64,000 bases of DNA. Source: Candidatus Gottesmanbacteria bacterium (GTDB taxonomy: Bacteria; Patescibacteriota; Microgenomatia; UBA10105; UBA927). Location: positions 448,696 to 512,695 of the forward strand of contig CAWBPL010000002.1 in the NCBI GenBank assembly GCA_963790805.1. The letters run 5' to 3'. The first letter of the stretch is position 1; every line of letters starts with the position of its first letter. Below, piece by piece: positions 31,299 to 61,245 of this stretch. Below the pieces are notes generated by a model. It had not been told where the DNA came from, did no database searches, and saw nothing but the letters and a program-made list of their open reading frames with translations. Position numbers and translations under genes: made by a program.

Positions 31299-33476
31299 TT
31301 ACGGCCACGAGGCAATGATAAGCGGTTTTCCATCCCACCCCAGAATTTTTTGATAGAGAGATTCTGTGACAAACGGCATAAACGGATGGAGAAGTTTCAA
31401 AATATTCATAAAAATATGCCGAAGTACGGCGAGCGCCTGCGGGTCGCCCGTTTTAAACCGCTCCTTGTTTTTTTCAAGATGCACATCGGCAATTCTGTGC
31501 CATGTAAAATCATAGAGTTTTTTGGCGGCATCGGAATACCGGTAATTTTCCATATTTTTCGTTACCGCCGCCTTCATCATGTTGAATTCCGAAATAATCC
31601 GTTTGTCATGGGCGTCCTTCAGTTTGGCGTGCATAGTAGCATCGTACCACGGGACATCTTCGTTCTTTGTTTTTTTGTATTCTTCAAAATTCATCGTCAA
31701 AAATCTCCCGATATTCCACAATTTGTTGGCGAAATTCCTCATGCCACGGATTTTATCTTCAGACAGCGACTGGTCGTTGCCGGCTGCAGTTCCAAATATC
31801 AGCGCCATGCGAAGGGCGTCAGCGCCATAGAGGTCAACCATTTTTAGAGGGTTAATGACATTCCCTTTACTTTTGCTCATTTTCTGGCCTTTAGCATCCC
31901 GTACGAGGCCATGAAGGTAAACGGTTTTAAAAGGTACCTTTCGGGTCATGTAAAGCCCCAGCATGGCCATTCGGCATACCCACCAAGGGAGTATGTCATA
32001 TCCTGTCTCCATGACGCTTGTAGGGTAGAAGTACTCATAGTCTCCTTCAAAGGGACTTGCCTGAAGCGTCGCAAACGGCCACTGGCCGGAGGAAAACCAT
32101 GTATCAAAGACATCCGGATCCTGTTGCAGGTTGGAGCCGTGACATTGAGGACATTGAGTGGGTTTCGTTCCGTCTGTGACGATCCAGTCTTCTTTTTTTC
32201 CATCAAAGCAATCGACGCAAAACCACGCCGGTATTTGTATGCCCCAAACAATTTGTCTTGAAATGTTCCAGTCATGAAAATCAGTAAGCCAGCGCAAGCC
32301 ATGTTTCTCGAACCGTTTCGGGACAAATGCAATTTTTTTCTCTTTTATTGCCTGCTTTGCGGCGTCGGTCAACGGTTTTACTTTCACGTACCATTGTTTG
32401 AGTGGTAACGGTTCGATTGCTCTGCCGCATTTGTAACAGGAGGCTTTCACCATCGCGTGCGCGCTGTCGATATGATCCAATGCATTAATTTCCGGTTTGG
32501 ATAAATCAGCAACCACCGCTTCGCGTGCATTGACGACCGAGAGGTTGTGGTAGCTAACAGGCACTTCGGAAATCGCCATCATTTTTCCGTTGAGACCTAT
32601 GACTTGTATGACGCGAAGCCCGTGTTTTTTGCCGGTTTCAAAATCATTGTGGTCATGGGCCGGAGTAATCTTAACGGCGCCGGTACCGAAATCCTTTTTT
32701 ACCACCGAGTCGGCGATTATTGGAATTGGCCGGTTGGAAAGGGGAATGAGTGCGGTTTTTCCGATGAACGTTTTAAATCGTTTATCTGTCGGATGAACGG
32801 CTATTGCTTCGTCGCCGAACATGGTTTCCGGTCGGGTGGTAGCGACAGTGATGGAATTGTTTTCGCCCGTTATGGCATACCGGATATAGTAAAGCTTGCC
32901 CATTACATCTTCATGTTTGACTTCAAGGTCGGAAAATCCTGTACCATCCTTGGTACAGTAGTTGACGAGTCGTTCTCCGCGATAGATAAGCCCGTCGTCG
33001 TACAGCTTTTTAAACGTTTTATAAACAATCGCGACTATTTTGGGATCCAGCGTAAAGATATTTCGCGACCAGTCAAGCGAAAATCCGAGTCTCCGGAGCT
33101 GGTTTTCCATGTTACCGCGATTATTTTGCACAAAATCCCAGATATTTTTATAGAGCGTTTCGCGGTCAAAATCAAAACGGCTTTTGCCTTCTTTTGCCAA
33201 CTGTTTTTCGTAGACATATTGTGTCTCAAACCCCGCGTGATCGGCGCCCGGAAGCCAGAGCGTCGGGTCTCCCTTCATGCGGTGGTAGCGGATCATAATA
33301 TCCTCTACCACGTACATCGCATGACCCAAATGCAAATCGGCATTGGCATTGGGGGGAGGGAGGATAACAGTAAATGGAGTTTTGGTTTTATCAATTTTCG
33401 GCGCAAAATATCCACCCTGTTCCCAGAGTTGGTACATATCACTTTCCGTTGCGGCGGGATTATATGCTTTATCCAT
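31299..33476 (-). CDS. valS: valine--tRNA ligase (short form, no C-terminal coiled coil)
   Basis: PPPNANADLHLGHA (HIGH), KMSKSKGN (KMSKS), a CP1 region with a Cys cluster. Start set at MDKAYNPAATE. Confidence 0.9.
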   Translation of the reverse strand: MDKAYNPAATESDMYQLWEQGGYFAPKIDKTKTPFTVILPPPNANADLHLGHAMYVVEDIMIRYHRMKGDPTLWLPGADHAGFETQYVYEKQLAKEGKSRFDFDRETLYKNIWDFVQNNRGNMENQLRRLGFSLDWSRNIFTLDPKIVAIVYKTFKKLYDDGLIYRGERLVNYCTKDGTGFSDLEVKHEDVMGKLYYIRYAITGENNSITVATTRPETMFGDEAIAVHPTDKRFKTFIGKTALIPLSNRPIPIIADSVVKKDFGTGAVKITPAHDHNDFETGKKHGLRVIQVIGLNGKMMAISEVPVSYHNLSVVNAREAVVADLSKPEINALDHIDSAHAMVKASCYKCGRAIEPLPLKQWYVKVKPLTDAAKQAIKEKKIAFVPKRFEKHGLRWLTDFHDWNISRQIVWGIQIPAWFCVDCFDGKKEDWIVTDGTKPTQCPQCHGSNLQQDPDVFDTWFSSGQWPFATLQASPFEGDYEYFYPTSVMETGYDILPWWVCRMAMLGLYMTRKVPFKTVYLHGLVRDAKGQKMSKSKGNVINPLKMVDLYGADALRMALIFGTAAGNDQSLSEDKIRGMRNFANKLWNIGRFLTMNFEEYKKTKNEDVPWYDATMHAKLKDAHDKRIISEFNMMKAAVTKNMENYRYSDAAKKLYDFTWHRIADVHLEKNKERFKTGDPQALAVLRHIFMNILKLLHPFMPFVTESLYQKILGWDGKPLIIASWP

Positions 33477-33539
33477 GAGGCTATTGTATCGCAGAAGATC
33501 GCGACGGAGCAAGCTGAGATCGAAATTAGTTTCTGAAGT

Positions 33540-34853: not shown

Positions 34854-34887
34854 AGTTTAGCTTGCGCTGATGAGTGAAGCGACGAAG

Positions 34888-34959
34888 TGCCAGCGGCAGG
34901 AATCGGACCTGCTGCCCATGCCTTATGAAGACACTGCTCTACCAATGAGCTACGCTGGC
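34888..34959 (-). tRNA. tRNA with CAT anticodon (elongator Met or lysidine-modified Ile2); CCA not encoded
   Basis: The reverse complement folds by hand. Acceptor GCCAGCG/CGCTGGC. D arm GCTC-ATTGGTA-GAGC. Anticodon arm GTGTC-TTCATAA-GGCAT. Variable GGGCA. T arm GCAGG-TCCGATT-CCTGC. Discriminator A. 72 nt. Confidence 0.85.
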
Positions 34960-35009
34960 CTCTGAGACAGAAACTACGTTTCTTTCCCAGCGATACTTTC
35001 TACCAATGA

Positions 35010-35048
35010 ATTGCGACGGGTTCAGGTCATAAAGCACACCGTCGCAAT
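35010..35048. repeat. perfect 10-bp inverted repeat with 19-nt spacer
   Basis: ATTGCGACGG (35010-35019) and CCGTCGCAAT (35039-35048). Confidence 0.8.
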
Positions 35049-35131
35049 GGATTTTAGCCTTTTATGAACCCGTTTATTTTATCGGTTTTGAAATCAAAAG
35101 GCAATGAAGCTTTCCGCGTCAGTATTTCAGA

Positions 35132-35161
35132 TTGACCATCAGGATGCTCTCCGAGTATAAT
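35132..35161 (+). promoter_or_regulatory. sigma70-like promoter aimed at the tRNA-like gene
   Basis: TTGACC (35132-35137), 18-nt spacer, TATAAT (35156-35161). It ends 24 nt before position 35185. Confidence 0.55.
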
Positions 35162-35167
35162 GATCAT

Positions 35168-35184
35168 GTTCTGATTTCAAGAAC
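35168..35184 (+). repeat. diverged copy of the island repeat block (palindromic ends GTTCT/AGAAC)
   Basis: GTTCTGATTTCAAGAAC directly abuts the tRNA-like gene. It shares GTTCTnAnTTCnnGnAAC with the copies at 45788, 46589 and 47730. Confidence 0.5.
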
Positions 35185-35254
35185 CGCGGGGTAGTGTAGA
35201 GTAGCACAGAAGGCTCATAATCTTCTAGACCAGGCGCGACTCCTGGCCCCGCAA
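35185..35254 (+). tRNA. non-canonical tRNA-like gene, anticodon CAT (possibly an element-borne or hybrid tRNA)
   Basis: Hand fold. Acceptor CGCGGGG/CCCCGCA (C1xA72 mismatch plus 6 bp). D stem GTGT/GCAC with loop AGAGTA (no GG). Anticodon arm GAAGG-CTCATAA-TCTTC. Variable TAGA. T arm CCAGG-CGCGACT-CCTGG (no TTC). Discriminator A. 70 nt. Confidence 0.5.
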
Positions 35255-36970
35255 CAAGCTAGGAATTGAAGCAAACATTTCGTCCGTTTGAGCCGTTGGA
35301 ATGCTCTGTTTATCGGGTGCGAGTAATTCCTGAAGTATTGGTGCTTCTTTTTTCATCTTCTTGATCACAATAAACGGCAACGGGCTTTCAATACGCAGTG
35401 TTTTATCTTGTAATTTTAGGTGCGAACCTAACTTTGATAATATCTCCCGTTTCACTCCGAGGTCGGGTTCTGCGAACCGCTCACGTGCATGAGCGGCAAA
35501 ATTGAATTTCTCGTTTATCTCGTCTGCGGCTTGGAGCATACGTTCGTCTATACTGCCCATCTGCTTCCCTAATCCTTTAATTTCAGCTTCCAGTTTGAGT
35601 TTCTGTTCCTTGAATTGTTCGTCAGATAACATGCTTCCATCACTATTGAGTGGTGAAATTTTGAGTTTGACGAGATTATCAAGTTCTTTCCGGGCGTCAG
35701 AGTGGGCACGAGTCACCGATTGTATTGCTTCCTCTCGGAAATCCCGCTCACCGTCATTCATTACATTGATTTGTCTGATAGACCAATCTACGAAGCACTG
35801 TGGTATTTCAAGAGATGAAATTTCAGCATCAATCTGCTTTTCAAATAGATCAAGTCGTATGCCTTTTTGTGTACACCGTAGGTCTTTCCGGCGTTTACAG
35901 CGATAGTAAATGTAATGCAGGATTTTTGGCTCTTTCATTTGGTCAATACGAGTTTTGCACTGTGGACACGCTTCTTTATTTTTCTTCGTTAAAGAAAACT
36001 TGAGCTTACAGGTACGGCAAATACACTGCCATTTCTCCTCTGCGGTGATCGTGGAGCCACAAAACCCGCATTTTAGCAGTGACGTATATGCCCACTCGTG
36101 ATTTTTGAGATGATATTTGCTTTTATGACCGAGTATTACCTGCACTTCTTCAAATAACTCATCACTGATGGCGGGTTCATGTTTTCCTTCGTGCCATTCT
36201 CCGCTCCCTTCGGGGTACTCAAATTTGCCTGTGTAGAAGGGATTGCCGAGGATTTTATAGATATTGCTGATAGACAACGGTCGCCCCCCCATTCGTTTTT
36301 GTTGCCTTGTCCTGTAGCCCCATTCCTTTTCCGCTAACCGGTGTATCTCAGTCACCGGCGTACCTTTTCGGAATAGCTCAAATATCCTTTGAATGAACGG
36401 GAGCCGTTCTGGATCGGTTAAAACACGCCTAAAACCGCTTTCCGTGCCTTTATCATTGAGATACCCCTGTGGTGCAACACCTGGACGCCACCCATCACGG
36501 CATTTTTTATCAAGACCACGTTTCACTACAATCGCCTTATCATCACTGTCTTTTTTGGATAATCCAAACTCCAAAGTTAGCATAAACTTATCTTCCGGCG
36601 TGTTGTGATATGTCCGGGATGGTGTACGGACTTCAAGCAATTTTCCCATATCAAACAGGTCAATAATTCGTCCGCCGTCAGTCATATTACGAGCTAATCG
36701 GTTAGGATGCCACGTGACTATCGCATTCGCTTCACCCTGTTCTATCCGCGTAATCATTGATTCAAAAATAGGACGTCCTTTTACATGGGCTGATTGTGAT
36801 TCATCTAACACTTCGATAACTCGCAGATTATGGCGTGATTTCAGACCTTCAAGGATATAAAGTTGCTCCGGGAGAGAAGCAGCCTGCCGTTCCTTGTTAT
36901 CCTCGCTAGACTTGCGGGCATATCGAAGTATTTTAGTTGAACAGTTTTGAATCCATAATAAAGCCCCCAC
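35225..36970 (-). CDS. large serine recombinase (resolvase/invertase N-domain + recombinase domain + zinc ribbon + coiled coil)
   Basis: N-terminus ILRYARKSSEDN (catalytic Ser region), NAIVTWHPNRLARN, and a Cys-rich zinc-ribbon block CGFCGSTITAEEKWQCICRTCK...CPQCK. The 3' end overlaps the tRNA-like gene by 30 nt on the opposite strand. Confidence 0.85.
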   Translation of the reverse strand: MGALLWIQNCSTKILRYARKSSEDNKERQAASLPEQLYILEGLKSRHNLRVIEVLDESQSAHVKGRPIFESMITRIEQGEANAIVTWHPNRLARNMTDGGRIIDLFDMGKLLEVRTPSRTYHNTPEDKFMLTLEFGLSKKDSDDKAIVVKRGLDKKCRDGWRPGVAPQGYLNDKGTESGFRRVLTDPERLPFIQRIFELFRKGTPVTEIHRLAEKEWGYRTRQQKRMGGRPLSISNIYKILGNPFYTGKFEYPEGSGEWHEGKHEPAISDELFEEVQVILGHKSKYHLKNHEWAYTSLLKCGFCGSTITAEEKWQCICRTCKLKFSLTKKNKEACPQCKTRIDQMKEPKILHYIYYRCKRRKDLRCTQKGIRLDLFEKQIDAEISSLEIPQCFVDWSIRQINVMNDGERDFREEAIQSVTRAHSDARKELDNLVKLKISPLNSDGSMLSDEQFKEQKLKLEAEIKGLGKQMGSIDERMLQAADEINEKFNFAAHARERFAEPDLGVKREILSKLGSHLKLQDKTLRIESPLPFIVIKKMKKEAPILQELLAPDKQSIPTAQTDEMFASIPSLLRGQESRLV

Positions 36971-40672: not shown

Positions 40673-40775
40673 TTTAATTTTAATAGTGAGCCTATTATAT
40701 CAGGAAAAACGACACGGTGGCTTCCAAAGTTATTCTATTTCTGGTATCGTACAGGGGACAATTTAATTGCCTAAA

Positions 40776-40880
40776 CTACCGAAAGGTAGCATGGCAGAAA
40801 AACCGGTAAAGAGCTGTAAGCTCTCGTCAGAGCATCTTTACCGGTCATGCAAGGAAACTTGCATGGGTGACGCAAGTCAT
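40776..40880 (+). ncRNA. candidate structured RNA leader (four consecutive hairpins, three with GNRA tetraloops)
   Basis: CTACC-GAAA-GGTAG (40776-40789). 11-bp helix ACCGGTAAAGA...TCTTTACCGGT (40802-40845). CATGCAAG-GAAA-CTTGCATG (40846-40865). TGAC-GCAA-GTCA (40868-40879). The GNRA loops exist only on the + strand. Confidence 0.45.
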
Positions 40881-40900
40881 CACTGGCGGGAGCTTTCTGT

Positions 40901-47774: not shown

Positions 47775-47803
47775 TTGACAAAAGAGCCTATAAATGCGAT
47801 ACT
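47775..47803 (+). promoter_or_regulatory. sigma70-like promoter of the T-box leader
   Basis: TTGACA (47775-47780), 17-nt spacer, GATACT (47798-47803). Confidence 0.6.
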
Positions 47804-47809
47804 TTTACC

Positions 47810-48127
47810 CTAAGTGAATACAGGCGATGTGGAGTGAGGATGGAGCCCACTTCATGAAAGAAATGTCGAACTTTCATGACGCTGACCCTAATCAGGTACG
47901 GAGGCGAAACCGTAAAAAGTCTGTCAACATATGTCGCAAGTAGCGGAGTATGTCATAAACAAGACTTCTTACATGACGTGCTTCCTTAAAGGGAAGCATT
48001 TTTTGTAGGCAAGTGAAACCCTCTTTCGTTGAAACTACGGAGGGTAAACAAGGTGGCACCGCCCTCAATAAGAGAGCCCTTGTAAGTCTTTCAGGACTTT
48101 TTCTGGGAGATTTGCAAGGGTTTTTTT
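47810..48127 (+). promoter_or_regulatory. T-box riboswitch leader (transcription attenuation type)
   Basis: T-box sequence AACAAGGTGGCACCGCC (48047-48063). Antiterminator: A1 CAAGG/CCTTG, 7-nt bulge TGGCACC, A2 GCCCTC/GAGAGC. Competing 13-bp terminator CCCTTGTAAGTCT...AGATTTGCAAGGG (48077-48120) plus T7. Stem III ACCCTC/GAGGGT. Upstream GCGATG/AGTGA elements. Confidence 0.8.
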
Positions 48128-48222
48128 ATAGCGATAGTTCAGTTGGCAGAACGCGTGTGCGGAATGCGTGAGCGCTACGCGGTTGGGGCTTGAATCGCCG
48201 GTTCGATTCCGGCCCCGCCTGC
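48128..48222 (+). ncRNA. tRNA-like element of unclear status (canonical D arm and T arm, no foldable acceptor or anticodon arm)
   Basis: TA-GTTC-AGTTGGCA-GAAC (48135-48152) and GCCGG-TTCGATT-CCGGC (48197-48213), followed by CCCGCCT-G. The 44 nt between them gave no 5-7-5 anticodon arm with U33, and no AGGCGGG 5' strand is present. Confidence 0.35.
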
Positions 48223-48257
48223 ACGGTAAAAATTATTTGATACAATAAGGAGGTTGT

Positions 48258-50123
48258 ATGAAAGATCGAATAGTTCAAAAATATAGTGAAGAGTTAACGA
48301 AACTCGGAATTCATCACGAGGTATTTGAGCATCCGCAACTTATTTCTGTTGAAAAAGTGCAAAAGTATCTGGGGTATGGAATGGATGATTCTGCGGCAAC
48401 GCTGGTGATGAAAGCAGGGGATCGATTTGTCGCAATTATTCGTAGGGGAGACACGAAGCTCGATAGCGAAAAAGTCAAAAAATTATTAAACGTTACGACG
48501 CTTCGTATGGCGACGGAAGAAGAATTTTCCGATGTTACGGGTGTGCCAAGTGGAGCGGCGAGTGTGTATATTCCCAATATTCCAACGTTTATTGATAAGC
48601 GGATTTTTGAAAAACAATACATTAATGCAGGATCCGGCAGTCTTTTATATACCATTCGATATAAAGCAGAAGATTTAAAAAAGATTCCAGGGATAACCGT
48701 TGTTAATGTAACAAACGCAGATAACGCTTTAACCCCTGTAGAAAAATTAGAGGTGCCTAAGGGTAAACGGCTCTATTCTGCTATTACGCCCAGTGGTGAT
48801 GGGACACTCCATATCGGCAACTATCTCGGTGCGGTGCGGCAGTTTATTGAACTTGCAAAATACAATGAGTGTTTTTTTCAGCTGGCGACCATTCACGGAC
48901 TCACAACCATTCAGGATCAAAAGCAACTGGCTGGAAACATCGAGCGGTTAACTCTCAACGAACTGGCGCTTCTTGGAGAAAATCCTAATATTTATTTCTG
49001 TTATCAATCAGATATTCCCTATCACACCGAGCTCCAATCGATTCTCAATAATGTGACACCCTTGGGACTGCTTAAGCGTGCGCATGCGTATAAAGACAAA
49101 CTTGGTAAAGATGTCATGGAAGATGATATAAACGTCGGTTTGTTTAGTTATCCTATGCTCATGGCTGCTGACATATTGATTTATAAAGCCACGCTCGTGC
49201 CGGTGGGGAGGGATCAAAAACAGCACGTGGAAATAACGAGAGATATAGCAGAGCGGTTTAATAGGATTTATAAGAAGAAAGTATTTCCGCTTCCTGATCC
49301 TTATATACCCGAAGAAGTAGCGGTCATTCTCGGTACCGATGGGCAGCGAAAAATGAGTAAAACGCTTGGAAACATCATAAGTATTTTTGAAGATGAGGAA
49401 GTTATTAGAAAACAGGTAAACGGAACGTTTACCGATCCGACCCGGAAACACGTGACTGATCCTGGTCATGTTGAGGGAAACATGGTATTCACCTACCTCG
49501 ACTTTTTTGGTGAAAAGGAAAAAGTCAGTGAACTCAAGGAGCTCTATAAAGCAGGTAAAGTAAGCGACGTCGAAGTGAAAAAATATTTATTCGAAGCACT
49601 TATGAAGACATTCGCTCCCGCGAGGGCCCGGTATGCGGATCTCGTTGCCAACCCTGAAAAAGTGAAAAAGATTTTAGATCGGGGACGTGGGCACGCACTA
49701 GAGGTAGCATCCAAGACGATGGCAGAAGTGCGTGAGGCGGTCGGGTTTACGAATCGATATTCATTGGGACAACCATCAACGCAGGTTACTGGTAATAGCA
49801 AAATCACAATCGATGATTTTGCCAAAGTAGATGTACGGGTAGGAAAAGTTGAGGCAGCGGAAAATGTCGAAAAGAGCGAAAAACTCATCCGGCTGCATGT
49901 GGATTTCGGGAGTGGCGGCAAGCGGATTATTTTTACCGGCGTCCGGCAGTTTGGCTATACGGCGGAATATTTTACCGGTAAACAATTTTTCTTTGTGTTT
50001 AACCTTGAGCCGCGAAAGATGATGGGGGAGGAAAGTCAGGGAATGATTGTTGCGGTTGATGGCTCTCAAAAACCCATCTTCTTGTCAGGTGAAGGAATGC
50101 CGCTGGGGGCACGAATTCGATAA
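48258..50123 (+). CDS. trpS: tryptophan--tRNA ligase fused to an N-terminal YbaK/ProX-like editing domain and a C-terminal Trbp111/EMAPII-like tRNA-binding domain
   Basis: aa 1-165: ATLVMKAGDRFVAIIRRGDTKLDSEKVKKLL...GVPSGAASVY (YbaK-type). Core: ITPSGDGTLHIGNYLGA (HIGH), VPVGRDQKQHVEITRDIAERFN, KMSKTLGN. C-terminus: IDDFAKVDVRVGKVEAAENVEKSEKLIRLHVDFG (OB-fold tRNA-binding). AGGAGG RBS at 48249-48254. Confidence 0.8.
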   Translation: MKDRIVQKYSEELTKLGIHHEVFEHPQLISVEKVQKYLGYGMDDSAATLVMKAGDRFVAIIRRGDTKLDSEKVKKLLNVTTLRMATEEEFSDVTGVPSGAASVYIPNIPTFIDKRIFEKQYINAGSGSLLYTIRYKAEDLKKIPGITVVNVTNADNALTPVEKLEVPKGKRLYSAITPSGDGTLHIGNYLGAVRQFIELAKYNECFFQLATIHGLTTIQDQKQLAGNIERLTLNELALLGENPNIYFCYQSDIPYHTELQSILNNVTPLGLLKRAHAYKDKLGKDVMEDDINVGLFSYPMLMAADILIYKATLVPVGRDQKQHVEITRDIAERFNRIYKKKVFPLPDPYIPEEVAVILGTDGQRKMSKTLGNIISIFEDEEVIRKQVNGTFTDPTRKHVTDPGHVEGNMVFTYLDFFGEKEKVSELKELYKAGKVSDVEVKKYLFEALMKTFAPARARYADLVANPEKVKKILDRGRGHALEVASKTMAEVREAVGFTNRYSLGQPSTQVTGNSKITIDDFAKVDVRVGKVEAAENVEKSEKLIRLHVDFGSGGKRIIFTGVRQFGYTAEYFTGKQFFFVFNLEPRKMMGEESQGMIVAVDGSQKPIFLSGEGMPLGARIR

Positions 50124-50187: not shown

Positions 50188-51030
50188 ATGGATTCCGTTC
50201 CTTCATCAGTTGTGCCTCCAGCGAGCTCTTCCACCTCATCGCCGCCGGCTGATATGCCGACGCCTCCTGTCCCCCCCACACCGTCGGATTCTTTGGTGGT
50301 CCCCCCAGAACCCCCTCCGGCGCCCGCTGAAGCAACAAATCAACAAAGCTTTTCAGTATCACGTGGAGGAAAAAGAATTGGCAAAAAGCCGTCAGTCGGA
50401 GTAATTCTCACGATTATCTTTCTTCTTTTTGTTACGTTACCCTTAACGGTCATGTTTGTGGGAAATAAAAATCAATCGACTGATGTGCGAAGTAGAGCGG
50501 CGTATGCCCTTGGTCACACCTGTGATCCTTCAGCCGGTTCGGATGGCGGATGCGGGTCAGGAGAAGGATGTTCCTGTAGAAACGGTTCGTGTGCGTGTGG
50601 TCTTACCGGCGGACAGCAACCGTGTTATCACACGATATGTCCAGTAAACTATTCGTGTAATGGTTCGGGCGATGGTTCATATTGCAGTCCGAATACTCCG
50701 ACATCTCCTAACAATCCTCCGTCAGGCAGCACATCAACTCCGACTCCCACGTCCACTACAGCGCCCTCTTGTCCGGCGGTACAAGTGTATAGAAATAATG
50801 TCTTAGTAACTGATTTAAACACCTTGGCGGTCGGGGATACTATAACGGTTGTAATACCGGGTGGCACCGCAACACAGGCGCAGGTTCGTCTCAATGGCGG
50901 AGGGTGGAATGTTCAAACGACAAAAGATGCAAACGGAAATTTTGACATCACCTTCCCGATTTTAGTAAACGCCGGTGTTACCACAGGTACCATCGAATAT
51001 CAGGTGTATATCAATGGAACGTGGTATTAA
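50188..51030 (+). CDS. hypothetical Pro-rich / TM / Cys-rich surface protein
   Basis: PPADMPTPPVPPTPSDSLVVPPEPPPAP, TM (VGVILTIIFLLFVTLPLTVMFV), then a Cys-rich segment. Confidence 0.45.
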   Translation: MDSVPSSVVPPASSSTSSPPADMPTPPVPPTPSDSLVVPPEPPPAPAEATNQQSFSVSRGGKRIGKKPSVGVILTIIFLLFVTLPLTVMFVGNKNQSTDVRSRAAYALGHTCDPSAGSDGGCGSGEGCSCRNGSCACGLTGGQQPCYHTICPVNYSCNGSGDGSYCSPNTPTSPNNPPSGSTSTPTPTSTTAPSCPAVQVYRNNVLVTDLNTLAVGDTITVVIPGGTATQAQVRLNGGGWNVQTTKDANGNFDITFPILVNAGVTTGTIEYQVYINGTWY

Positions 51031-59358: not shown

Positions 59359-61245
59359 ATGGCAGACAAACCTCAAGTAAAACCAAAGCGGGCAACCAAT
59401 GGGAAAAAGCCGACAAAAATGTTTCAGTTCCGGTTCCAATTGAACCTCAAAAACATTATTATTGGACTTTTTATTCTGTTTCTTGTTTTTTCTCTCATCG
59501 GAAGTTTTAGCGGTCAAAATACCTCATATCCTGAAAAACCCCTTTCGAGCGTCGTTGGAGATATTAAAAACGGAAAAGTAACCAATGTCGGAGTGGAAGA
59601 CACCAAGCTGACGCTTGACTATAAAGACGGCGAACATTTTACTTCCCACAAAGAGTCGCAGGATTCGATCTATACGATTCTCAAGGACGCAGGAGTCGAT
59701 CCGAGCAAAACACAAATCACCGTGAAAGACACGTCAGCCGGGCAGTTGTGGGCCGGTATCATCTCCAATGTTTTGCCGCTTGTGTTAACGGTTGTCTTTT
59801 TCCTTTTCCTATTCCGTCAGGCCCGTGGGGCGCAGGATAATATTTTCAGTTTCGGGCAAAGCAAGGCGCGTATTTTTAGCAAAGATCTTCCCAAGGTCAC
59901 GTTTGCCGATGTGGCTGGTGTCGATGAAGCGAAAAAGGAGCTGGAGGAAGTTGTCGACTTTTTAAAAAACCCCGCAAAATATAAGGCATTAGGTGCCAGA
60001 ACGCCGAAGGGAGTTATCCTTGTTGGTCCCAGCGGTACCGGAAAAACGCTTCTTGCCAAGGCCATGGCAGGGGAAGCGAAAACCGCGTTTTTCAGCATTG
60101 CCGGAAGTGAATTCATGGAGATGTTGGTAGGTGTTGGTGCCGCTCGGGTTCGCGATCTTTTTGCCAATGCAAAAAAAAGCGCGCCGGCGATTATATTTAT
60201 CGATGAGATCGATGCAATTGGCCGCATGCGAAGTGTCGGCATTATGGGCGGTCATGATGAACGCGAACAGACGCTCAATCAAATACTTGTTGAAATGGAC
60301 GGATTTGAACCAAATACTGCAGTTCTTATTGTTGCTGCGACAAACAGGGGTGATCTTCTGGATCCGGCGCTTCTTCGGCCGGGTCGATTTGATCGCAGGG
60401 TTGTGTTGGATCTTCCCGATATGGCTGGAAGAAAAGCAATTCTTGGCATTCATGCGAAAGGAAAGCCCTACGCAGTATCGGTTGACTGGGATAAAGTGGC
60501 CAAACGAACCGTTGGATTTTCTGGGGCCGATTTGGAAAATATGCTCAATGAGTCAGCAATTCTCGCGGCCCGCGAAGATAAAAAAGAAATTGATATGAAA
60601 GATCTGGAAGAAGCGGCAACGAAAGTAAAGTTGGGGCCGGAAAAGAAACGGTTACAAAGTGATCTGGATCGTAAAATGACGGCATATCATGAAGGGGGAC
60701 ACGCGGTTGTGTCGTACTTCTCTCCGAATTTGGATATAGTTCATCGAATCAGCATTGTTTCGCGCGGCATGGCATTGGGATATACATTGTCTCCTCCAGA
60801 GAAAGATAGACTTCATGAGACGAAATCCCGACTTATAGATGAAATTGCCATGACCATGGGGGGACGTGCTGCCGAACAGCTTATTTTTAATGAGATGACA
60901 TCAGGCGCTGCGAATGACATCGATCAGGCAACGCGGATTGCCCGCTACATGGTTATGGAGTTTGGCATGAGTGATCTGGGTCCCATCAACTTCGGTCCGC
61001 AGATGGATATAACCGAGTGGGGACAAAGCATAATGGATCAAAGCCCGATTTCCCAGGATATGCAGGGGGCGATTGATCGGGAAATCAAGAAGTTCTTAGA
61101 TGAGGGGTATAAAAAAGCTCTCGATACATTAAAAAAACACCGCAAATACTTGGATCTCGTTGCCGAGGCGCTTATTAAAAAAGAGACGCTCGAGAGTGAA
61201 GAATTCGAAGCACTTATGGGCGGACCAAAAGTAAAAGCGAGCTAA
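59359..61245 (+). CDS. ftsH: ATP-dependent zinc metalloprotease FtsH
   Basis: Walker A GPSGTGKT, Walker B IIFIDEIDA, SRH region, zinc site HEGGHAV. Confidence 0.95.
   Translation: MADKPQVKPKRATNGKKPTKMFQFRFQLNLKNIIIGLFILFLVFSLIGSFSGQNTSYPEKPLSSVVGDIKNGKVTNVGVEDTKLTLDYKDGEHFTSHKESQDSIYTILKDAGVDPSKTQITVKDTSAGQLWAGIISNVLPLVLTVVFFLFLFRQARGAQDNIFSFGQSKARIFSKDLPKVTFADVAGVDEAKKELEEVVDFLKNPAKYKALGARTPKGVILVGPSGTGKTLLAKAMAGEAKTAFFSIAGSEFMEMLVGVGAARVRDLFANAKKSAPAIIFIDEIDAIGRMRSVGIMGGHDEREQTLNQILVEMDGFEPNTAVLIVAATNRGDLLDPALLRPGRFDRRVVLDLPDMAGRKAILGIHAKGKPYAVSVDWDKVAKRTVGFSGADLENMLNESAILAAREDKKEIDMKDLEEAATKVKLGPEKKRLQSDLDRKMTAYHEGGHAVVSYFSPNLDIVHRISIVSRGMALGYTLSPPEKDRLHETKSRLIDEIAMTMGGRAAEQLIFNEMTSGAANDIDQATRIARYMVMEFGMSDLGPINFGPQMDITEWGQSIMDQSPISQDMQGAIDREIKKFLDEGYKKALDTLKKHRKYLDLVAEALIKKETLESEEFEALMGGPKVKAS

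Follow-up and report, generated by a model that had tools for sequence, protein, structure and literature searches.

A tryptophanyl-tRNA synthetase of a Gottesmanbacteria-like bacterium carries an N-terminal YbaK-fold domain without the canonical lysine

The DNA analysed here is a 64,000-nucleotide stretch of contig CAWBPL010000002.1 (assembly GCA_963790805.1) from a Candidatus Gottesmanbacteria bacterium, referred to below as the window and numbered from its first nucleotide, and the gene of interest is the open reading frame (ORF) at 48258-50123. It encodes a 621-aa tryptophanyl-tRNA synthetase (TrpRS) composed of a YbaK-like N-terminal domain, a TrpRS core and a Trbp111-like C-terminal tRNA-binding domain, an arrangement put forward in the original prediction and borne out in every detail by Pfam, TIGR00233 and the AlphaFold2 and Foldseek results. 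The best explanation of the gene is that it is the TrpRS of a Gottesmanbacteria-like bacterium belonging to the Candidate Phyla Radiation (CPR) in which three modules have been joined by gene fusion. The features of the gene are given below with the basis of each assignment in brackets.

48247-48253, + strand: Shine-Dalgarno sequence AAGGAGG, 4 bases 5' of the ATG (read from the sequence)
48258-50123, stop codon included, + strand: the whole ORF, a 621-aa three-domain tryptophan--tRNA ligase (Pfam, TIGR00233, direct reading)
48258-48713, + strand: N-terminal YbaK/INS-fold domain, residues 1-152 (PF04073, AlphaFold2, Foldseek, clade analysis)
48396-48398, + strand: codon of Ala47, at the lysine position of the INS superfamily, AATLVMK versus xKTLxxK (pairwise and profile alignments)
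48441-48446, + strand: codons of Arg62-Arg63, residue 62 being the predicted cross-strand partner of residue 47
48552-48566, + strand: counterpart of the GXXXP loop, Gly99-Ala-Ala-Ser-Val103 (alignments)
48714-48764, + strand: flexible linker 1, residues 153-169 (predicted local distance difference test, pLDDT, below 50 at residues 156-164)
48765-49757, + strand: catalytic core plus anticodon-binding region of a bacterial-type TrpRS, residues 170-500 (TIGR00233, PDB 2el7)
48804-48821, + strand: HIGH motif TLHIGN, residues 183-188 (direct reading)
49161-49178, + strand: MAADIL, residues 302-307, including Asp305 (direct reading)
49206-49226, + strand: GRDQKQH, residues 317-323 (direct reading)
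49350-49364, + strand: KMSKT, residues 365-369 (direct reading)
49758-49799, + strand: flexible linker 2, residues 501-514 (pLDDT below 50 at residues 505-513)
49800-50120, + strand: Trbp111/MetRS-C-type OB-fold tRNA-binding domain, residues 515-621 (PF01588, TIGR00399, 1pyb)

All three Pfam domains of the protein exceeded their gathering thresholds, and the reading frame was uninterrupted up to a single terminal stop. A second, separate Logan contig encoded an identical protein, and of the 120 best homologues, drawn from NCBI, JGI, ENA and Logan, 84 had the N-domain fused in frame, at identities of 54-78% and with inter-domain linkers that could be aligned among them. These 120 homologues comprised 53 three-domain proteins, 31 with the N-domain and TrpRS and 36 with TrpRS and the C-terminal domain, figures biased by the full-length query, which favours long proteins. 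A core-only search found plain TrpRS of about 340 aa, yet it left out the three-domain proteins. No architecture frequencies are claimed because both lists were skewed and at least one of the 'plain' records proved to be a start-site truncation. Locus L008 contains at 849-2360 a 503-aa fused ORF (N-domain plus TrpRS) for which the public record (P0343) is a 340-aa 'plain' ligase, and gene callers must therefore sometimes start internally and mask the fusion. A genuine plain TrpRS exists (locus L026), and the statement that every relative carries at least one appended domain was rejected as evidence of redundancy, being a ranking artefact of the full-length query.

The fusion architecture was common within the Gottesmanbacteria/Microgenomates of the CPR, the named hosts of homologues being Candidatus Gottesmanbacteria, Roizmanbacteria, Microgenomates and Patescibacteria, and a survey with a narrower alignment of the N-domain returned 12 loci. 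Tandem tRNA_edit pairs were present in homologue variants of ~660 and ~780-800 aa. The fused proteins are annotated in databases simply as 'tryptophan--tRNA ligase', and literature searches for a described TrpRS-YbaK fusion turned up nothing beyond a remark in the legend of a figure in Mukai et al. 2017 (PMC5370408). The fusion is thus already in databases, noticed once in passing and otherwise unanalysed, and while it is indeed unusual for a bacterial TrpRS, as had been proposed, it is not rare.

The full-length AlphaFold2 model (pLDDT 82.6, predicted template modelling score, pTM, 0.56) contained three well-folded domains separated by low-confidence linkers. The 621-aa protein is accordingly modelled as beads on a string, with no fixed inter-domain packing predicted. 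The two modules added to the TrpRS core fold independently on flexible tethers, and each comes from a tRNA-directed family.

The central part of the protein was identified as TrpRS by several measures. Residues 171-452 matched tRNA-synt_1b (PF00579) with an E-value of 3e-53, residues 169-497 scored 261.2 bits against the NCBIfam model TIGR00233 (trpS), above the equivalog cutoff of 176.75, and the best PDB relatives of the core were all TrpRS, with 2el7 at 2e-66. The TLHIGN, GRDQKQH and KMSKT motifs named beforehand were all present at the residues listed above, and the residues of the core motifs as well as Asp305 were invariant in 52 aligned relatives. From a by-eye alignment of the motif, Asp305 of MAADIL presumably corresponds to Asp132 of B. 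stearothermophilus TrpRS, the aspartate that confers specificity for the indole NH. By these sequence criteria the core is a complete bacterial-type TrpRS (class Ic) that would aminoacylate tRNATrp.

The C-terminal domain matched tRNA_bind (PF01588) over residues 526-606 (E 2e-17, 63.4 bits versus a cutoff of 27) and metG_C_term (TIGR00399) at 1e-28, and was modelled with a pLDDT of ~90 throughout. Residues 6-109 of the 111 residues of Trbp111 (1pyb) aligned to residues 515-619 with an E-value of 5e-18, which includes the C-terminal dimerisation part. At locus L026 a separate 112-aa tRNA_bind gene lies directly 3' of a plain trpS and is a Rosetta-stone case for this domain. By analogy with the MetRS-C/Trbp111 family, the domain would add non-specific tRNA binding in cis.

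The 621-aa TrpRS itself is without a single Trp residue, and 103 of the 119 listed homologues are likewise Trp-free; for the protein of the window the chance of this was ~3e-4, with the Trp content of the window's other long ORFs (1.31%) as background. A remark on CPR TrpRS by Mukai et al. agrees with a Trp-free TrpRS (PMC5370408). This composition fits an enzyme that needs to be synthesised when Trp-tRNA is scarce.

The N-domain was assigned to the tRNA_edit fold by sequence and by structure, as had been predicted. Residues 25-142 matched PF04073 with an E-value of 1.7e-19 (70.6 bits versus a cutoff of 25.5), and the AlphaFold2 model of residues 1-152 had a pLDDT of 95.5 and a pTM of 0.88. 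A Foldseek search of the PDB with this model returned 37 significant matches, all of YbaK fold and nearly all from the YbaK/ProX/INS family, the best being APE2540 (1wdv) with a TM-score of 0.88 and a root-mean-square deviation of 1.5 Å. A family profile compared with PDB sequences ranked 1wdv (9e-16), the INS domain of ProRS (1e-13) and YbaK (3e-9). The N-domain did not reach the threshold for YbaK proper (TIGR00011), scoring 24.4 bits versus a cutoff of 153.25.

The lysine on which this superfamily depends was absent. It is strictly conserved in the INS superfamily, where its change to alanine dramatically impairs deacylation in every tested member (PMC10164551), and characterised members use it together with a GXXXP loop (PMC11286415); it corresponds to K279 of E. 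coli ProRS, K46 of YbaK and K45 of ProXp-ala (PMC10164551, PMC11286415). In the query this position is Ala47, which aligned with the lysine of 5znj, 1wdv, 2cx5, 3op6 and 2j3l. Lysine was found at column 47 in none of 85 fused sequences, which had Ala (55), Ser (17), Thr (6), Val (5) or Pro (2), and the second domain of the tandem proteins was likewise without it (GVSTLIF). The original prediction had named the catalytic lysine of the YbaK-type pocket as a check on its editing domain; the editing-type fold stands, while this check fails and the functional label is not established. In the counterpart of the GXXXP loop Gly99 was invariant and proline was missing from both candidate positions in the subtype of the query, while the other fused subtypes keep one proline, as GxVPY or GYVSP.

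The domain showed no sign of decay. Identity within the subtype was ~0.75 for the N-domain and ~0.72 for the core, and across the three subtypes, which are 21-25% identical, P26, R63, D65, G99 and G127 were invariant and T48, D113 and D139 nearly so. Except for the lysine and the proline, the canonical pocket motifs are retained, namely the GXXXP-loop Gly, the Thr beside the lysine position, the GSG segment and D113. Lys52, five residues past the lost lysine, was K or R in 76 of 85 sequences and by its spacing may correspond to K50 of ProXp-ala, which touches the first base pair (PMC10164551). Judged from these conservation patterns the N-domain appears to be under strong purifying selection rather than decaying, and for this reason it is probably functional.

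The lysine-less sequences formed a group of their own. When 1.84 billion representative proteins were searched with a profile, 4,140 relatives were obtained, and the 37 top-scoring representatives, down to 98.6 bits, had no lysine (three of them being fragments without that column). They included free-standing proteins of 147-161 aa, and lysine-bearing proteins started below 98.6 bits. As the profile itself could bias the ranking by score, a pairwise comparison was made with the lysine column excluded, in which the nearest neighbour shared the lysine state in 141 of 142 domains, and the lysine-less sequences formed coherent neighbour-joining clades. The lysine was therefore lost long ago, and its absence defines the clade.

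All columns of the N-domain were scanned for the gain of a basic residue in the lysine-less group. Position 62 was the most discriminating, being R or K in 24 of the 32 top lysine-less representatives versus none of 80 lysine-bearing relatives, which have Leu, Val or Ile there; the Fisher P of 6e-18 for this difference does not take phylogeny into account, and as few as one or two ancestral events may lie behind it. A more robust fact than the P value is that the basic residue is invariant across very divergent subtypes, with R (57) or K (27) in all 84 TrpRS-fused homologues. Position 63 was R in 84 of 84 fused homologues and was considered as the compensating residue, although it was set aside since Arg63 also occurs in the INS domain of ProRS and in 20 of the 80 lysine-bearing proteins and faces the other side by hairpin register. 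DSSP assignments on both the N-domain and full-length models placed residues 45-53 and 56-63 in the two strands of a hairpin with a two-residue turn, from which residue 62 is predicted to pair with residue 47 on the same side of the sheet, in the same pocket. This suggests that the positive charge of the pocket was relocated to the neighbouring strand and not lost. Neither this lysine-less, Arg62-bearing branch of the INS superfamily nor its connection with tryptophan seems to have been described before.

The fusion partners of the clade were tRNA enzymes. The lysine-less domain was located N-terminally on TrpRS in P0124, P0125, P0135, P0140 and P0211 and C-terminally in P0142, and in P0262, also of this clade, a PheRS-type B3/4 editing domain and an INS-like domain precede TrpRS. 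In P0198 it was fused to a bacterial-type TyrRS. Lysine-bearing relatives were fused to archaeal-type TyrRS at either the N- or the C-terminus (P0185, P0199) and C-terminally to AspRS-type class II enzymes (P0203, P0233, P0265). None of these INS-like fusions with TyrRS, with AspRS-type enzymes or with B3/4 and TrpRS, all of them from metagenomic representatives, appears in the reviews consulted.

A free-standing lysine-less family of ~154 aa was also identified in 50 clusters; that it is real is shown by a stop codon of its own and by a neighbouring gene in convergent orientation. Its member at locus L020, 43% identical to the N-domain of the query, is found in the order trpS (367 bits), TrpB2 (686 bits), YbaK-like gene and pyridoxal phosphate-dependent decarboxylase, and at L021 the YbaK-like gene is at most 5 kb from TrpB2 (691 bits) and a gene of the Trp-halogenase family. 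Among CPR relatives without the fused N-domain, L014 and L015 share a cluster of tRNA-Trp, TrpB2, trpS and ftsH, with an amino-acid racemase gene in L015 only, directly upstream of trpS, and the L026 cluster consists of a TrpB-like gene, TrpA, the plain trpS, the separate tRNA_bind gene and ftsH. The N-domain was not seen as a separate gene beside trpS in L014, L015 or L026. No link to proS was seen anywhere among the fusions and neighbourhoods of the clade, and neither TrpB2 nor a racemase was found within the window. From the repeated independent fusions and the neighbourhoods we infer that the N-domain is specific to the TrpRS/tRNATrp system.

As a separate observation on gene order, the Trp clusters of the CPR relatives (L014, L015, L026), in which a tRNA_bind domain comes after trpS either fused to it or as its own gene, continue past ftsH to a 5'-3' exonuclease, and in the window ftsH (59359-61245) lies 9 kb from trpS.

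The reading that we favour, at a probability of roughly 0.4, is that the N-domain is a rewired, tRNATrp-directed module that proofreads look-alikes of tryptophan. The canonical lysine, which steers the A76 phosphate, would have been replaced by a small residue and an Arg or Lys gained at position 62 of the adjacent strand, and the domain would still take the aminoacylated 3' end of tRNATrp and hydrolyse non-cognate products of TrpRS. Catalysis by INS members is thought to be substrate-assisted, with the 2'-OH of A76 activating water and the lysine binding and positioning (PMC10164551), and on that account a relocated basic residue could preserve activity. Catalysis would proceed largely via the A76 2'-OH together with the glycine-loop backbone, and a shift of the basic residue would remodel rather than destroy the site, as is plausible given the Arg or Lys at position 62.

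Candidate substrates are speculative. They would include D-Trp-tRNATrp and tRNATrp charged with substituted tryptophans, the latter arising from indole salvage by a promiscuous TrpB2 or from halogenases. The classical substrates of DTD are the D-aminoacyl products of TrpRS, TyrRS and AspRS (PMC1807948), and, again speculatively, D-Trp fits both the fusion partners, which correspond to the DTD set, and the racemase beside trpS in L015. Substituted tryptophans might in turn fit the TrpB2 and halogenase neighbours. A stand-alone protein with a conserved pocket is also more likely to be an enzyme than a tether. A bolder version, which we regard as rather unlikely in its entirety, is that the lysine-less Arg62 INS domains are a new proofreader family for aromatic class Ic synthetases in which the phosphate-steering residue has migrated, that the domain described here is the first example of cis-editing on TrpRS, clearing D-Trp or substituted-Trp tRNATrp, and that the free-standing members beside trpS, TrpB2 and halogenase genes are trans-acting self-protection factors.

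Several points weigh against proofreading by this domain. The canonical lysine is missing and its change to alanine abolishes or severely impairs deacylation in every tested INS member, and the proline of the GXXXP loop is also gone in the subtype of the query. The pairing of residues 47 and 62 was inferred from secondary structure alone, and the inter-domain geometry is undefined in the full-length model (pTM 0.56). A tryptophan link was found in just two of the six free-standing neighbourhoods, the other four being without one. The domain is facultative, since among relatives whose cores are 70-85% identical it is missing or belongs to another subtype. TrpRS is not reported to mischarge tRNATrp, and the one precedent that has been studied, the AlaX-like domain of Plasmodium TrpRS, has no catalytic activity and functions in tRNA binding (PMC3680381).

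The main alternative is a non-catalytic role, a real contender if still short of an even chance, in which the domain is a pseudo-editing helper that provides an extra handle for tRNATrp, at its acceptor end or its body, and lowers the Km for tRNA, either alongside or redundantly with the C-terminal domain. Exactly the inactivating change, lysine to alanine, occurs here naturally, together with the loss of the GXXXP proline. The Plasmodium domain offers a close parallel, its catalytic residues being mutated while it is needed for tRNATrp binding and aminoacylation, again with no mischarging of tRNATrp known. Relatives that have just one of the two appended domains, both of them or none would fit add-ons for tRNA binding that can stand in for each other, the facultative presence of the domain at 70-85% core identity also speaks for a helper, and the residue kept as K or R at position 52 in 76 of 85 sequences would, if it corresponds to K50 of ProXp-ala, suit contact with the tRNA. 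The YbaK fold has also been reused outside editing, in SadB (9qzk) and 3mem. It is hard, however, to picture a tether role for free-standing lysine-less members of ~154 aa, some of which lie in Trp-metabolic or biosynthetic neighbourhoods, and the glycines of the pocket and the adjacent motifs are invariant across very divergent subtypes. The Arg or Lys at position 62 of every fused homologue looks like compensation for phosphate binding in the pocket, and the tandems of two subtypes as well as the combination with B3/4 resemble multiple specificities rather than generic binding. A mundane role as a tRNA handle is quite plausible.

A role as a sensor, regulator or substrate-capture module for a small molecule (Trp, an indole derivative or an aminoacyl-adenylate-like compound) under Trp limitation seems improbable. 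The residues of the pocket are small (A47, G99-A-A-S, A124-G-S-G-S) and the pocket may be enlarged, YbaK-like domains are known in signalling proteins, and Trp scarcity is indicated by the Trp-free enzyme, shared with 103 of 119 homologues, and by the Trp-synthesis genes that adjoin trpS in relatives. The invariant basic pair 62-63 and the conserved K52, though, suit a nucleic-acid phosphate better, and the fusion partners are always tRNA enzymes (TrpRS, TyrRS, AspRS type, B3/4 domain).

Poorer still is the case for a proofreader of the ProRS system carried on TrpRS, which would deacylate Ala- or Cys-tRNAPro in trans and replace a missing INS, YbaK or ProXp-ala, and the original suggestion that the domain compensates for lost free-standing editing factors found no support in this form. 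The closest solved relatives (APE2540, the INS domain of ProRS, T. thermophilus ProX and YbaK) are of that system, and N-terminal fusions of ProXp-ala to a synthetase are known, but on ProRS (PMC11286415). The lysine and the GXXXP proline used by all Pro-system members are absent here, the score against the YbaK model TIGR00011 was 24 bits versus a cutoff of 153, and the domain is missing from close relatives with similar genomes. The associations of the clade, moreover, are with TrpRS, TyrRS, TrpB2 and a gene of the Trp-halogenase family, that is with tryptophan and not with proline or proS.

That the ORF is an artefact, either an assembly chimera or a sequencing frameshift that merged separate genes, can be set aside with near certainty, as although gene-calling at such loci is inconsistent (P0343, a 340-aa truncated call of a 503-aa fused ORF) and the C-terminal domain is a separate adjacent gene in one relative, the frame is unbroken behind a strong Shine-Dalgarno sequence, the linkers align across homologues, an identical gene was found on a second contig, and 84 in-frame fusions of the N-domain at 54-78% identity came from four data sources.

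In the 530-nt gap upstream of the trpS fusion gene, a site resembling a promoter, a weak match to a T-box and a strong terminator hairpin were found, arranged as follows.

47775-48127, + strand: tentative regulatory leader (weak; T-box 29 bits versus a gathering threshold of 93)
47775-47803, + strand: promoter-like TTGACA-17-GATACT, within the leader
47841-47844, within the leader: UGG-A, candidate specifier
47926-48084, + strand: weak T-box-like match (RF00230, 29 versus 93 bits), containing GGTGGCACCGC at 48052-48062
48075-48127, + strand: 20-bp terminator hairpin followed by a T-run, the 5' arm overlapping the predicted antiterminator

The T-box elements present were the core sequence GGTGGCACCGC and the antiterminator/terminator arrangement only; the match to RF00230 stayed well below the gathering threshold, and Stem I was almost unmatched. 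As the core motif was absent upstream of orthologues at 11 loci, the T-box leader is a candidate only, and regulation by a T-box as a feature of the family was unsupported. A second exact copy of GGTGGCACCGC was located at 50860-50870 inside the downstream ORF, where it encodes Gly-Gly-Thr-Ala and is probably coincidental coding sequence, two copies being present in the window versus 0.06 expected.

Between the terminator and the start codon is a tRNA-like stretch (48135-48224) with D- and T-arms that look intact and a 3' strand, CCCGCCT-G, that is a close match for the acceptor strand and G73 of the L015 tRNA-Trp. It has no 5' acceptor partner, and its anticodon region is disrupted and enlarged. 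A functional tRNA was not supported, there being no ARAGORN call, an Rfam score of 21.6 versus 29 bits, no acceptor-stem pairing and a fold z-score of -0.8. The stretch is probably a decayed tRNA-Trp gene, since in relatives the trpS clusters have a genuine tRNA-Trp upstream of them.

Other features of interest in the window included the gene directly 3' of trpS (50188-51030). Its 280-aa product has an N-terminus rich in Pro, Ser and Thr, a Cys/Gly-rich middle and a single predicted hydrophobic segment, and matched no Pfam family significantly; on the independent contig L001, too, trpS is followed by this gene. The LOOT RNA family of Rfam (RF03000) was matched strongly and at full length at 40768-40881, with 87.6 bits versus a gathering threshold of 46.4. 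The region 31299-33512 on the minus strand encodes a 737-aa class Ia synthetase that matched the LeuRS editing-domain profile only at positions 84-150 of 185, and may be a LeuRS whose CP1 editing domain is reduced. At 34887-36970 a large serine recombinase of 581 aa (Resolvase and Recombinase domains) has its start flanked by two divergent tRNA-Met (CAT) genes, a possible mobile element integrated at a tRNA gene.

Among the synthetases TrpRS is a textbook case of an enzyme that can do without proofreading, and to our knowledge no editing domains are known for class Ic synthetases. In current reviews the INS members besides the ProRS insertion are single-domain proteins, and all rely on one conserved lysine. 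The present locus and hundreds of its relatives place INS-like domains on TrpRS, TyrRS and AspRS-type enzymes in uncultivated bacteria, and reveal a whole branch of the INS superfamily that is without the 'essential' lysine and in which a basic residue on the neighbouring strand is correlated with this absence. If active, the domain would provide a new quality-control step for Trp codons, possibly chiral or analogue proofreading, and would show how a catalytic residue can migrate in nature while the fold is conserved. If inactive, it would add a convergent second instance, after the apicomplexan enzyme, of an editing domain that has died and serves as a tRNA handle on TrpRS, with a general message on how weakly TrpRS cores bind tRNA.

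In comparison with known systems, the C-terminal 107 residues match the whole of Trbp111, of the Trbp111/MetRS-C/CsaA family (PF01588), and are located, as in MetRS, C-terminally on a dimeric class I synthetase, although here the synthetase is TrpRS and not MetRS or PheRS-beta. The N-domain has the same fold as the INS/YbaK superfamily (ProRS INS, YbaK, 2cx5 and 1wdv, with TM-scores of 0.82-0.88) and shares with it membership in PF04073, the Thr after the lysine position, the Gly of the GXXXP loop, a conserved Asp and a Gly-rich segment, as well as an RGD-like segment with the INS domain of ProRS. It differs in having Ala47 in place of the lysine, no GXXXP proline, Arg or Lys rather than Leu, Val or Ile at position 62, and an association of its clade with Trp instead of Pro. 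DTD1 is a possible functional analogy only, as its substrates D-Tyr-, D-Trp- and D-Asp-tRNA match the three types of synthetase fused to INS-like domains while its fold is unrelated to INS.

The fusions of ProXp-ala to ProRS in P. falciparum and T. brucei (PMC11286415) also place an INS-superfamily domain on a disordered linker at the N-terminus of a synthetase, and are alike too in acting on the tRNA of their own synthetase, if the N-domain acts on tRNATrp. Unlike the N-domain, ProXp-ala keeps the lysine and GXXXP, is a proven Ala-tRNAPro deacylase, and is located on the synthetase whose errors its family normally corrects. The AlaX-like domain (AXD) of the apicomplexan cytosolic TrpRS, studied in P. 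falciparum (PMC3680381), likewise sits as an editing-type domain on a linker at the N-terminal end of a TrpRS, is missing the hallmark catalytic residues of its parent family, and forms a peripheral monomeric domain on a dimeric core. The AlaX fold is unrelated to YbaK/INS, however, the enzyme is a eukaryotic-type TrpRS, and the role of AXD in tRNA binding and aminoacylation has been shown experimentally (PMC3680381), whereas the compensating basic residue and the free-standing relatives of the present N-domain suggest that the function of its pocket has been retained.

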